Assembly (NCBI GenBank): GCA_903855135.1
Contig: CAINYB010000007.1
Coordinates: forward strand, 8,402-72,401
Length of the DNA stretch: 64,000 nucleotides
Direction: 5' to 3'
From: an uncultured bacterium
GTDB taxonomy: Bacteria; Patescibacteriota; Patescibacteriia; UBA1558; GWA2-36-10
Part shown: positions 22,640-63,988 of the stretch, piece by piece
Layout of the letters: the number at the start of each line of letters is the position of its first letter
Position numbering within the stretch: position 1 is the stretch's first letter
The notes under the pieces: generated by a model
Seen by the model: only the letters and a program-made list of their open reading frames with translations
What the model was told of the DNA's origin: nothing
Database searches by the model: none
Program-made: the position numbers and the translations under genes

Positions 22640-22723
22640 GTCACTCTGTCTTCGACTCCGAGATCGCTCAGACTCGAGAAGAATTTATTTCAGGGTCTGA
22701 TTCTGAAACAAGTTCAGAATGAC
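22640..22723. repeat. R1 repeat element copy 1 (~85 nt) in the rpsB-tsf spacer
   Basis: Near-identical to 57090-57174 (about 3 differences). Confidence 0.7.
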
Positions 22724-55374: not shown

Positions 55375-55757
55375 GGGGATGTTTTATATTTGACAATAAA
55401 TCAAATAATAGGCAGCAAGTTGAGCTGACTAACTCAAAAAATGGTCAAAAAGAATAAGTGCAAAAAACTTATTTGCGAAAGCCAAAGAACTTTTCCAAGT
55501 TCCTCAACTTTCACCAGTTTTAGCCTAAACTGCTAAAACCGTTCGCTATTTATTTGCTCAAAGGTAAATAAACGGACGTCATTCATTTGAGCTGTAGCAA
55601 AGATGCGCTAAGTGCTTTGCCAAATTAAATCTTAGCTTTAAGTCAAAGTGTTTTGTAATTTTTATAGCTTTGACTTGAACTTTAAAAAATTACTAAACTT
55701 GTAGAAGTTTGTTAAGCGATTTGTTAGACAGGGGTGTGATTCCCCTCATCTCCACCA
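55375..55757 (+). ncRNA. ssrA: tmRNA (transfer-messenger RNA)
   Basis: Begins right after the smpB stop with GGGGAUGUUUUAUAUUUGAC (compare the E. coli 5' end GGGGCUGAUUCUGGAUUCGAC); 3' end GGGGUGUGAUUCCCC T-arm, then CAUCUCC pairing with the 5' GGGGAUG, then ACCA; internal tag frame ending ...SPVLA-UAA at 55526-55528. Confidence 0.8.
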
Positions 55758-57070: not shown

Positions 57071-57089
57071 AAATACCCCCTGAATTATC

Positions 57090-57174
57090 GTCACCCTGTC
57101 TTCGACTCCGAGATCGCTCAGACTCGAGGAGAATTTATTTCAGGGTCTAGATTCTGAAACAAGTTCAGAATGAC
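57090..57174. repeat. R1 repeat element copy 2, embedded in the loop of the rplT terminator hairpin
   Basis: Flanked by the IR aaataccccc (57071-57080) / ggggggtattt (57181-57191) followed by a T-run; near-identical to 22640-22723. Confidence 0.7.
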
Positions 57175-57261
57175 GTGTGAGGGGGGTATTTTAATTTTAC
57201 TAAAGCTCATCTGAATCAAACGTCTTCCGCCAAAGGCGGAAGCGACAGAAGGAATGTTTTT

Positions 57262-57794: not shown

Positions 57795-57871
57795 GGGGTG
57801 GTAGTTCAGCTGGTTAGAACGCCTGCCTGTCACGCAGGAGGTCGAGGGTTCGAGTCCCTTCCATCCCGCCA
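57795..57871 (+). tRNA. tRNA-Asp (anticodon GUC)
   Basis: Cloverleaf: acceptor GGGGUGG/CCAUCCC, D-arm GUUC-AGCUGGUUA-GAAC, anticodon stem CCUGC/GCAGG with loop CUGUCAC, T-arm GAGGG-UUCGAGU-CCCUU, discriminator G, encoded CCA. Confidence 0.9.
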
Positions 57872-59726: not shown

Positions 59727-61160
59727 TTAAATATTTTGTTCAATAAAGTTTCCTAAACTAAATAATTTTTCTTCTTGAAAACTATCAGCTAAAAGCTGGA
59801 TACCGATTGGCAAATTATTTTCATCTACTCCCATTGGTAAACTTAATCCACAGATACCAGCGATATTAGCACTAACTGTAAAAATATCTGCTAAATACAT
59901 ACTTAAAGGATCTGCTAATTTTTCTCCAAGCTTAAAAGCAGTCGTAGGAGTAGTCGGCGTCAACAAGACATCTACTTTAGCAAAAACTTTTTGAAAATCT
60001 TGTTTAATCACAGTACGTAATTTTTGCGCTTGTTTATAATAAGCATCATAATAGCCAGCCGACAAAATATAAGTGCCAAGCATAATACGACGTTTACTTT
60101 CTGCAGAAAATCCTGCCGCCCGCACTTTTTTATACCAGTCATCAAGATTTAAATCATTATTTTCGTGATGACCAAAACGTAAACCATCAAGTCGCGCTAA
60201 ATTTGAACTCACCTCTGCTGGCATCAAAATATAATAAGCAGCTAAGGCATATTCAGTATAAGGCAAAGAAACTTTTTCCACAACTATTTTTTGTTCCTGT
60301 AAAAAATCAATCGTTTTATCTAAGGCTTGTTTAATACTTGGAGCTAAGGCATCACTAAAATATTCTTTAGGCAAACCAACTTTTAATTTACGTGGCTCTT
60401 GATTTTTTAATAAGCTAAAATAATCTGGTACAACATTATAGCTCGCGCTTAAATCGTATTTATCGCGGCCGGCCATGATTTGCAATAAATAAGCCGCGTC
60501 TTTAACGCTCTTGCTAAATGGCCCAATCTGATCTAAAGACGAGGCCATAGCCATCGAGCCATAGCGAGAAACTCGTCCGTAGCTTGGCTTTAAACCTACT
60601 AAACCGCAAAAAGCAGCCGGCTGGCGGATAGATCCACCCGTGTCTGTTCCTAAGGCTATCGGCGCTAAATCAGCCGCTATAGCAGCTGCTGAGCCGCCAG
60701 AAGAGCCGCCAGGCACCCGGCTAGTATCGTGAGGATTTAAAACTGGCCCAAACGCTGAGTTTTCATTAGAAGCTCCCATGGCAAACTCATCACAATTTGT
60801 TTTACCTAAAATAATCGCTCCTTGATCCTCTAATTTTTTTATTGCTGTGGCTGTATAAGGCGCAATATAATTTTCTAGCATCTTGGAAGCGCCAGTTGCT
60901 CTTTGGCCTTTAACTAATAGAATGTCTTTGATGGCGATAGGCACACCAGTTAATTTTGCCATCTCACCTTGAGCAATTTTACTATCTGCTTTTTTTGCCT
61001 CTGCTAAAACCTGATCATTTATAGAAATAAAAGCATTAAGCTTATCATTTTTTATTTTATCCAAATAATAGCTTGTTAATTCAAAACTAGAAAAAGTTTT
61101 ATTTTTAAAACCAGCTAAAATTTGCTCAATATTTAAATTACTAAATTTATTTTCTGTCAT
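59727..61160 (-). CDS. gatA: Glutamyl-tRNA(Gln) amidotransferase subunit A
   Basis: Amidase signature GGSSGGSAAA; Ser-cisSer-Lys triad context; start placed at MTENK (the tracked ORF extends into the direct repeat). Confidence 0.9.
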   Translation of the reverse strand: MTENKFSNLNIEQILAGFKNKTFSSFELTSYYLDKIKNDKLNAFISINDQVLAEAKKADSKIAQGEMAKLTGVPIAIKDILLVKGQRATGASKMLENYIAPYTATAIKKLEDQGAIILGKTNCDEFAMGASNENSAFGPVLNPHDTSRVPGGSSGGSAAAIAADLAPIALGTDTGGSIRQPAAFCGLVGLKPSYGRVSRYGSMAMASSLDQIGPFSKSVKDAAYLLQIMAGRDKYDLSASYNVVPDYFSLLKNQEPRKLKVGLPKEYFSDALAPSIKQALDKTIDFLQEQKIVVEKVSLPYTEYALAAYYILMPAEVSSNLARLDGLRFGHHENNDLNLDDWYKKVRAAGFSAESKRRIMLGTYILSAGYYDAYYKQAQKLRTVIKQDFQKVFAKVDVLLTPTTPTTAFKLGEKLADPLSMYLADIFTVSANIAGICGLSLPMGVDENNLPIGIQLLADSFQEEKLFSLGNFIEQNI

Positions 61161-61170
61161 ACTTTTATAC

Positions 61171-61233
61171 ATTGTCATGCTGAACTTGTTTCAGCATTTC
61201 TTGTTGTCATGCTGAACTTGTTTCAGCATCTCT
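61171..61233. repeat. 61-bp direct repeat (left) flanking the GIY-YIG insertion; internally a tandem duplication of gtcatgctgaacttgtttcagcat
   Basis: Identical to 61583-61644 except one g/a change. Confidence 0.75.
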
Positions 61234-61236
61234 TAT

Positions 61237-61521
61237 TTACAAATCTATACTTAAATCTTTCCAGTTTGGATTTTGTTGATTAATCAAATTTATTTTCCAT
61301 TGTCTATGCCATCTTTTTAATTGTTTCTCTCTTTCTAGAGCATCTACAATATTATTCGTTATCTCCAAATATATTAATTTATCTACATTATATTTAGCGG
61401 TAAATCCTTTTATTATTTTTTCTTTGTGTTCTTTTATCCTTCTATAAATATTATTGGTTACACCAATATATAAAACATTATTATTTTGATTTGTCAGAAT
61501 ATAAACGTAATATTCTTTCAT
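61237..61521 (-). CDS. GIY-YIG nuclease domain protein (stand-alone, UPF0213-like)
   Basis: 94 aa; YVYILTN...LYIGVTNN...R..EH (GIY-YIG core). Confidence 0.7.
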   Translation of the reverse strand: MKEYYVYILTNQNNNVLYIGVTNNIYRRIKEHKEKIIKGFTAKYNVDKLIYLEITNNIVDALEREKQLKRWHRQWKINLINQQNPNWKDLSIDL

Positions 61522-61582
61522 ATATGCTTTTCTTCATTTATTTTTAGATCCTGAAATAAATTCAGGATGACTATTTACTTAT

Positions 61583-61644
61583 ATTGTCATACTGAACTTG
61601 TTTCAGCATTTCTTGTTGTCATGCTGAACTTGTTTCAGCATCTA
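61583..61644. repeat. 61-bp direct repeat (right) flanking the GIY-YIG insertion
   Basis: See the left repeat; overlaps the gatC stop codon. Confidence 0.75.
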
Positions 61645-61986
61645 TTTTTTTGTCCGCCTCGCGTCGAAGCGGGCTAATACTTGCGGAACTACTAAGTAGT
61701 CGTCTTCAACTTTTACAAATTGATCCTTAATACTTGCATCACTTTGACCCACCTCATCGGCTCTTAATAAATATTTCCCCCCAGATTTTTCCCCGGTCGG
61801 GGAAAAATCTGAAAATCCTAGTTCACTGATAAAAGGCTCAACATTTTTTAAATTTAAACTAGTCAATTTATCAAAATATGCCAAAACATCACTTAACTGG
61901 TTAGGAAAAGCTGCGATCTCTTCAGCACTTAATTCTAGCTTAGCTAAATTAGCAATTTTTAAAATTTCTTCTTTATTTAAACTCAT
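61642..61986 (-). CDS. gatC: Glutamyl-tRNA(Gln) amidotransferase subunit C (with C-terminal extension)
   Basis: N-terminal EEILKIANLAKLELSAEEIAAF GatC fold; immediately downstream of ligA and upstream of gatA. Confidence 0.8.
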   Translation of the reverse strand: MSLNKEEILKIANLAKLELSAEEIAAFPNQLSDVLAYFDKLTSLNLKNVEPFISELGFSDFSPTGEKSGGKYLLRADEVGQSDASIKDQFVKVEDDYLVVPQVLARFDARRTKK

Positions 61987-61987
61987 A

Positions 61988-63988
<2,001 letters not shown>

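Follow-up and report, generated by a model that had tools for sequence, protein, structure and literature searches.

A probable Ssn nuclease cassette inserted between gatC and gatA in a Patescibacteria lineage

Introduction

The gatC-gatA junction of an uncultured bacterium of the Patescibacteria (GenBank assembly GCA_903855135.1) holds a 474-nt block that is very probably a self-contained Ssn cassette, i.e., a gene for a small GIY-YIG nuclease together with its cognate TGTC-tagged repetitive extragenic palindromes (REPs), known in Ssn systems as SRM or NTS. The block lies in a stretch of 64,000 nucleotides (contig CAINYB010000007.1, positions 8,402 to 72,401), here called the window, and coordinates are counted from its first letter. 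That the block is a true insertion between the gatC stop and the gatA start in this lineage is strongly supported. The element is not novel in kind, since the system was described in 2025. New are the host, which belongs to the Candidate Phyla Radiation (CPR), a CTGAA-core hairpin class missed by the published search pattern, and base-resolution evidence of mobility. In the literature searched, we found no earlier base-resolution comparison of filled and empty sites for an Ssn cassette.

Ssn proteins are small single-domain GIY-YIG proteins of about 90-150 amino acids (cd10448, GIY-YIG_unchar_3), of which SsnA of Neisseria meningitidis has 94, and their genes are flanked by hairpins named NTS or SRM (Chenal et al., 2025; PMC11893778). 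In vitro, the hairpin is bound only as single-stranded DNA (ssDNA) and is cut a few nucleotides 5' of an unpaired tag, while double-stranded DNA (dsDNA) and RNA are not acted on. In the N. meningitidis system, the cut falls about 3 nt 5' of the tag and depends critically on the three bases that precede the palindrome, binding relies above all on the C directly following it, and residues Y6, Y17 and E64 of SsnA were shown to be essential (Chenal et al., 2025).

Results

The block is absent from the same junction in relatives

A multiple alignment with relatives shows a single clean gap of 474 nt (61169-61642, minus strand), so that the whole repeat-bounded block is the insert. This bears out the first-pass annotation, made from the letters of the window, which had proposed the insertion of a repeat-bounded block of about 475 bp and had suggested looking for an empty site in related gatCAB loci. 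Such a site was found in four close lineages and in three more distant species. The close set consists of five loci retrieved by protein search, with GatA identities of 95% (L206), 91% (L175), 90% (L176/L177) and 84% (L178); in each of them the junction is empty, with a 4-nt spacer (AAGT in L206). The three nearest GTDB species representatives (L007-L009) are metagenome-assembled genomes of Komeilibacteria/Parcubacteria with GatA identities of 63-69%, and their gatC abuts or overlaps gatA.

The empty site has the sequence AAAAAATAAAAGTATGGCAGAAAAT and reads AAAAAATAA-AAGT-ATG in L175. The filled junction of the window reads AAAAAATAG[ATGCTG...GACAATGTAT]AAAAGTATG, with the insert in brackets and AAAAGT-ATG on the gatA side. 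Since both junctions have the trinucleotide 'ATA', the insert can be placed only to within 3 nt. The shared trinucleotide might reflect a duplication of the target, although a match of this size is not significant in such A+T-rich sequence. With a G+C content of 26.4% for the insert and 22.5% for its open reading frame (ORF), the block stands apart from gatC and gatA, which have 35-36%.

An assembly artefact was rejected as an explanation. Seven same-species contigs, obtained from different samples with different assemblers, were compared and carry the same cassette save one single-nucleotide polymorphism, and the ligA-gatC-GIY-gatA context is common to all contigs that carry the protein. Certain contigs stop within the repeat, as expected for repeated DNA.

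The genes at the locus are ordered on the minus strand as ligA (61988-63982; NAD-dependent ligase in Pfam), gatC (61642-61986, 114 aa; GatC), the ssn-like gene (61237-61521, 94 aa) and gatA (59727-61160, 477 aa; Amidase). A stand-alone GIY-YIG ORF of 94 codons, on the same strand between gatC and gatA, had been noticed in the first reading and is present there (Pfam PF01541, E=1.3e-20). The same reading had the repeats overlap both neighboring genes. For gatC this holds, since the insert supplies the third base of the stop codon and that base only, changing TAA in relatives to TAG in the window. The overlap with gatA does not hold: choosing the longest ORF gives a protein of 483 aa with a start inside the repeat, and comparison with relatives places the true start at the ATG at 61160, downstream of the repeat. 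Gene callers were split in the same way between 483 and 477 aa (window 61161-61178; L002/L088 versus L001 and others). The repeats thus create false N-terminal extensions as well as breaks in assemblies at this locus.

The encoded protein resembles SsnA

The GIY-YIG domain spans residues 4-78 of the 94-aa protein, leaving about 16 residues beyond it, and Pfam gave no other significant domain. A pairwise comparison with a 94-aa ortholog from Neisseria gonorrhoeae showed 47% identity over 89 of 94 residues without gaps (E=1e-32), and the gonococcal protein was also recovered by tblastn against 7.3 Gb (E=4e-16). The gonococcal ORF is probably the SsnA ortholog, judging from its length, its Y6, Y17 and E64 residues and its NTS flanks. 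Judged against this ORF, the protein from the window lies within the thresholds that Chenal et al. (2025) used for homology to SsnA (E<1e-10, coverage of at least 75%). Its residues Y7, Y18 and E65, equivalent to Y6, Y17 and E64 of SsnA, are invariant across the 14 proteins of alignment A1, as are R28 and H32. Together with the repeat architecture described below, this gives good support for membership of the Ssn family.

More than 3,500 relatives of the protein were found, and the nearest non-identical ones share 71-74% identity and come from Parcubacteria, Desulfobacterales, WOR-3 and others. A phmmer search against PDB sequences gave no match at E<=0.01. The ORF is the only gene in the insert, and no HUH/Y1 tyrosine transposase, as expected for IS200/IS605 elements or RAYT systems, is encoded.

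Tagged hairpins bracket the gene

The two direct repeats (61168-61238 and 61580-61650) are 94% identical over 71 nt, with a 61-nt core (61171-61231 and 61583-61643) that differs at exactly one position, 61179. Each repeat is a dimer of a hairpin unit with a spacing of 32 nt, and folding of the dimers as ssDNA gave z = -5.0 and -4.85. Coordinates and folding thus uphold the earlier description of 61-bp repeats with one mismatch, each a tandem duplication able to form hairpins. On the plus strand the unit reads TGTC-AT(G/A)CTGAA-cttgt-TTCAGCAT, followed by C or T. Its 21-nt hairpin core matched the window at six places with at most three mismatches, versus none in 100 dinucleotide-preserving shuffles.

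The cassette holds six tagged units, located on both sides of the gene in a defined orientation, of which a structural scan scored five. These have an 8-bp stem, AT(G/A/C)CTGAA, and a 5-nt loop; four carry a TGTC tag and the fifth AGTC. On the gatA side, the outermost unit A1 (61173-61198, plus strand) is followed by A2 (61205-61230, plus strand; TGTC-ATGCTGAA-cttgt-TTCAGCAT-C), the canonical right end, which on the gene strand starts 7 nt past the ssn stop codon. On the gatC side, the dimer comprises B1 (61585-61610, plus strand), with one stem mismatch (G>A at 61591), and B2 (61617-61642, plus strand), whose palindrome is followed by a C (61642) that closes the insert and at the same time completes the gatC stop codon. 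The fifth unit (61547-61571, minus strand) is the left end, LE. It has the opposite orientation to the other four, precedes the start of the ORF by about 25 nt, reads GTC-ATCCTGAA-tttat-TTCAGGAT-C on the gene strand, and has its tag pointing away from the gene. This inverted unit was absent from the first-pass annotation. The order on the gene strand is thus gatC-TAG, two 'hairpin-ATGAC' units, the inverted 'GTCAT-hairpin' unit, the ORF, two further 'hairpin-ATGAC' units, and gatA.

The units agree in tag, stem and loop with the CGTC-tagged REPs, which have a CGTC or TGTC tag, stems of 8-9 bp starting with A-T, loops of 4-5 nt and a short tail (Di Nocera et al., 2013; PMC3733652). Their 3' tails, TTC, CTC, CTA and CTA, do not fit the CCA of that class, and some homolog loci have CCA(G). 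The hairpin units also give rise to recurring spurious peptides, e.g., MLKQVQHD.

The sense-strand hairpins have no U-tract or T-tract, and all terminator-like matches are antisense. A transcript from gatC to gatA should therefore read through the cassette. The usual coupling of the two genes over 4 nt is lost. Searched with Rfam at gathering thresholds, the cassette gave no match, and the matches in the window were a transfer-messenger RNA (tmRNA) and one tRNA only.

Repeats and gene go together in homologs

To see how the arrangement extends beyond the window, 80 metagenomic loci with homologs of the gene were collected, 75 of which had enough flanking sequence, and were scanned for units with a GTC tag, an 8-9 bp stem starting with A-T and a 4-5 nt loop. 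An upstream unit with its tag pointing away from the gene was present in 45 of the 75 loci, with a median distance of 36 nt between its end and the gene, and a mirror unit lay downstream in 43. Both occurred as an outward-facing pair in 34 loci, and 57 had at least one unit within 150 nt of the gene. An upstream unit of the LE type and a downstream unit together form the terminal inverted pair of such homologs. Unit density was 5.19/kb within 150 nt of the gene versus 0.145/kb at more than 500 nt away, a difference of about 36-fold; in 664 kb of gatA loci free of the GIY-YIG gene it was 0.035/kb, some 150-fold below the gene-adjacent value.

The stems vary by lineage (ATCCTGAA, ATGCTGAA, ATTCCCGC, ATGCCAGC and others), with an arm identity of 90% within one locus versus 66% between loci. 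Of the 75 loci, 26 had inverted repeats of 25 nt or more around the gene and 18 had direct ones, the arrangement of the window, whereas control flanks taken 1 kb further out had neither (0/36 for both). The published NTS consensus, allowing two mismatches, was found at eight homolog loci versus none of 80 control loci. Homolog ORFs sometimes extend into the downstream hairpin, as in P0108, the C-terminus of which reads ...PEINSG.

Gene-less doublets occur elsewhere in the window

Two elements named R1, to which the repeat termini had been linked in the first reading, indeed carry the hairpin class of the cassette, ATTCTGAAACAAGTTCAGAATGAC. Each is a gene-less doublet of a left-type and a right-type unit with the tags outward. 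Copy 1 (22640-22723, plus strand) lies between tsf and rpsB. Copy 2 (57090-57174, plus strand) lies downstream of rplT in the loop of a terminator-like hairpin (57071-57195), between the arms AAATACCCCC ... GGGGGGTATTT, as if it had been inserted into that loop. In both copies the left hairpin is split by an identical GC-rich segment of 33 nt, TCTTCGACTCCGAGATCGCTCAGACTCGAG(A/G)AG (22649-22681 and 57099-57131). Dropping this segment restores a perfect unit, GTCACCCTG joined to AATTTATTTCAGGGTCT, followed by GATTCTGAAACAAGTTCAGAATGAC; the segment is either a nested insertion or an integral part of the doublet family. In appearance the R1 doublets are non-autonomous miniatures of the cassette. 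An empty site for a doublet was sought in L178, where the intergenic DNA was too diverged to align, and no usable site was obtained.

Other small hairpin insertions around gatC

Small hairpin DNA has a hotspot in the gatC region, and the gatC-gatA junction is a recurrent landing site. L174/L207 also have an insert at the junction, but a different one, 78 nt longer than the empty site and with the hairpin ATCATTCCACTCCGCAGAGCGGAGCGGAAT (L174:2419-2500), and L208 has other hairpins, GTCTCCCCCTAAATTAGGGGGAGA and CTTCCGCCTTCGGCGGAAG, directly upstream of gatA (L208:1-75). Within gatC of the window, a perfect palindrome with a 12-bp stem (61782-61811, minus strand; CAGATTTTTCCCCG-ACCG-...), encoding GFSDFSPTGEKSGG, is an in-frame insertion of 33 nt that is absent from all relatives, where GatC has 96-103 aa versus 114 aa. 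It folds as ssDNA with z=-3.6 and belongs to a different hairpin class, because it has no GTC tag.

A further in-frame insertion, GC-rich and of 21 nt, encodes ARFDARR at the 3' end of gatC (61654-61674) and has no other copy in the window. It is present in L175/L176 (91% and 90%) and absent from L206 (95%), L174/L207 (92%) and L178 (84%); because it occurs in the relatives at 91% and 90% and not in that at 95%, its distribution does not track relatedness. This GC-rich tail was considered as part of the cassette insert and rejected, since the relatives show it to be a separate, older insertion.

Discussion

How the cassette may have moved

The filled and empty sites form a pair within a genus-level clade, so that the ends of the moved unit can be compared with the positions at which the enzyme would be expected to bind and cut. 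Read on the plus strand, the insert has its first base 4-7 nt 5' of the tag (TGTC) of the outermost unit, A1, and its last base is the C immediately following the final palindrome. The cut predicted for an Ssn enzyme falls between 61169 and 61170, which is 1-4 nt from the mapped boundary (from 61165/61166 to 61168/61169). Such an arrangement would be expected of an element whose ends are dictated by where its own enzyme binds and cuts, and it recalls the 'peel and paste' logic by which IS200/IS605 elements handle ssDNA.

By analogy with the tested family members, the following course can be envisaged. Wherever the DNA is single-stranded, at replication forks, during uptake or in repair, each unit would fold into its 8-bp hairpin, and the nuclease would bind the hairpin together with the unpaired TGTC tag. 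It would then nick the TGTCAT-hairpin strand 3-5 nt 5' of the tag. Cut in this way at its outer units, the block would have its ends released or marked on one strand, and transfer to a new site would be left to replication, repair and ligation by the host. The gene-less R1 doublets would be non-autonomous derivatives. We infer from this analogy that the protein cuts CTGAA-core units and that such cutting drives the movement of the cassette.

Several points weigh against this account. The agreement between boundary and cut site comes from one event and from our reading of an oligonucleotide design (Chenal et al., 2025), and the cleavage of CTGAA-core hairpins by this particular protein is proposed by analogy. 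The empty site contains no hairpin unit that could serve as a target; a pre-existing repeat dimer was considered for this part and found no support, as the empty sites of all four close lineages lack a unit. GIY-YIG enzymes hydrolyse DNA without a covalent intermediate and cannot rejoin strands, which leaves a full transposition pathway hypothetical. The end geometry is not universal, because the CGTC tags of the NTS units at the ssnA locus of N. gonorrhoeae (L173:1357-1384 and 1776-1803) face the gene; the rule for tag orientation may differ between subfamilies. Only eight units of the CTGAA-core class are visible in the 64 kb, six of them in the cassette, with no sign of the large expansions known from some Ssn hosts. 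Finally, the published SRM pattern, HGTCWYN(0-2)YYVSBRHN(0-5)WNVSBRGN(0-2)RNCYNB, has no match in the cassette and one unrelated match in the window. We ascribe this failure to the limits of the pattern, a search tool derived from 29 genomes, and do not take it as evidence against Ssn membership; the pattern matched only 10 of the 75 close homolog loci.

Given one event, an enzyme class that does not rejoin DNA and a hairpin-free empty site, self-mobilisation of the cassette is plausible, if on the doubtful side. A wider proposal would be that Ssn cassettes are autonomous mobile elements, with ends set by GIY-YIG nicking of ssDNA and the reaction finished by host enzymes, that they are the source of CGTC-tagged REPs across bacteria, and that this locus is the first mapped transposition product. 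We put this forward as a speculation that is rather unlikely to hold in full.

Alternative explanations

In the main alternative, the Ssn gene and its repeats would be passive cargo, moved by natural transformation or by illegitimate or repeat-mediated recombination, with the nuclease serving the host, for example by limiting the integration of incoming ssDNA as in Neisseria. Modulation of transformation is the sole role demonstrated for Ssn, for which domestication has been proposed (Chenal et al., 2025). Type IV pilus-like genes adjoin ligA, and the unrelated hairpin inserts of L174/L207 and L208 suggest that the junction may merely tolerate insertions. The inability of GIY-YIG enzymes to religate DNA fits this explanation too. 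On the other hand, the insert ends coincide with unit boundaries and not with arbitrary positions, co-varying repeats bracket the gene across phyla, as is typical of elements with their own ends, and gene-less R1 doublets are found at other sites. We consider passive transfer possible but unlikely.

The first-pass annotation had described the block as homing-like. In classical homing, a GIY-YIG double-strand break in the uninterrupted junction would be followed by copying of the cassette through gene conversion. Free-standing GIY-YIG homing endonuclease genes do exist between conserved phage genes, and the insertion between gatC and gatA is precise. Nevertheless, the protein has no DNA-binding module beside its catalytic domain, and the group I intron endonuclease model TIGR01453, its only NCBIfam match, scored 23.7 bits, below the cut-off of 56. 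Its characterised relatives act on ssDNA and do not cut dsDNA (Chenal et al., 2025). The target locus shares no homology with the flanking repeats, the empty site is free of hairpins, and the gene is rare on viral contigs, with 27 loci among 2.9 million. Classical homing is thus very improbable, and this part of the earlier interpretation is abandoned.

An ancestral gene deleted repeatedly in relatives is hardly credible: the flanking direct repeats could promote deletion, but recombination between 61-nt repeats would leave one copy behind, whereas no copy is present at the empty sites, every one of which has the same 4-nt spacer, the closest relative (95%) and the distant ones (63-69%) are all empty, and the G+C content of the insert is 9-10 points below that of its neighbors.

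Relation to known systems

The Ssn cassette reading is best judged by comparison with SsnA of N. meningitidis (Chenal et al., 2025). Shared features are the single GIY-YIG domain, the length of 94 aa, the same catalytic residues, a gene bracketed by hairpins in which an unpaired (C/T)GTC tag precedes a stem starting with A-T and the palindrome is followed by C, and solo repeat copies elsewhere in the genome. The core differs, being AT(N)CTGAA/TTCAG(N)AT with a 5-nt loop and not ATTCCCGCG, and the tags mostly point away from the gene, whereas those of N. gonorrhoeae face it. The host belongs to the Patescibacteria (CPR), a group that the main text of the Ssn report does not mention. That report remarks on the resemblance of repeat-ssn-repeat units to insertion sequences and leaves mobility open, while here an insertion event is documented.

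The CGTC-tagged REPs, which include dRS3 of Neisseria and RPE-4/6 of Rickettsia, have the same tag, stem and loop, frequently occur as dimers and are located just after or inside genes (Di Nocera et al., 2013). Apparently they lack a dedicated transposase, and no dedicated enzyme was found for them, whereas the units described here bracket a nuclease gene. The tail also differs, consisting of C or T followed by TCT or TAT instead of CCA, and the visible copy number is low. The locus thus bears on two open points, the mobility of repeat-ssn-repeat units and the spread of CGTC-tagged REPs.

REPtrons and REPINs (RAYT, GTAG REPs) and IS200/IS605 elements likewise have a small gene between inverted hairpin repeats and gene-less hairpin doublets scattered over intergenic regions, and their enzymes recognise ssDNA hairpins and cut at an adjacent short unpaired motif, as the enzyme studied here would do by analogy. 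The catalyst is different, a GIY-YIG hydrolase and not an HUH/Y1 enzyme, without the covalent intermediate or strand joining, and the tag is GTC instead of GTAG. GIY-YIG homing endonucleases such as I-TevI and phage Seg proteins share the catalytic fold and the position of a small, selfish-looking gene between conserved genes. They differ in possessing a DNA-binding region (NUMOD or I-TevI-like) and an intron or phage association, neither of which is seen here, and the expected target of the Ssn-like protein is an ssDNA hairpin and not a long duplex. Stand-alone 'Slx1-like' GIY-YIG proteins also consist of a minimal domain without accessory domains; in the survey that defined them they were held to be vertically inherited repair proteins (Dunin-Horkawicz et al., 2006; PMC1564403), whereas the gene in the window is part of an insertion with its own repeats.

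Surveys that rely on the published SRM pattern under-count the system, because the CTGAA-core class in CPR/Patescibacteria is missed. The locus also illustrates that a selfish block of 474 bp can reside in an operon that matters to the cell: gatC and gatA are essential, normally abut and are normally translationally coupled.

Other features near the locus

The gap between ligA and gatC is 1-47 nt in the window, L178, L007 and L008. A 195-aa gene without a Pfam match lies between these two genes in L174-L177, L207 and L009, and is absent from the window, L178, L007 and L008. The tmRNA gene (55375-55757) and the tRNA gene (57795-57868), both recognised at the Rfam gathering threshold, are located a few kb from the cassette and have no apparent link to it.

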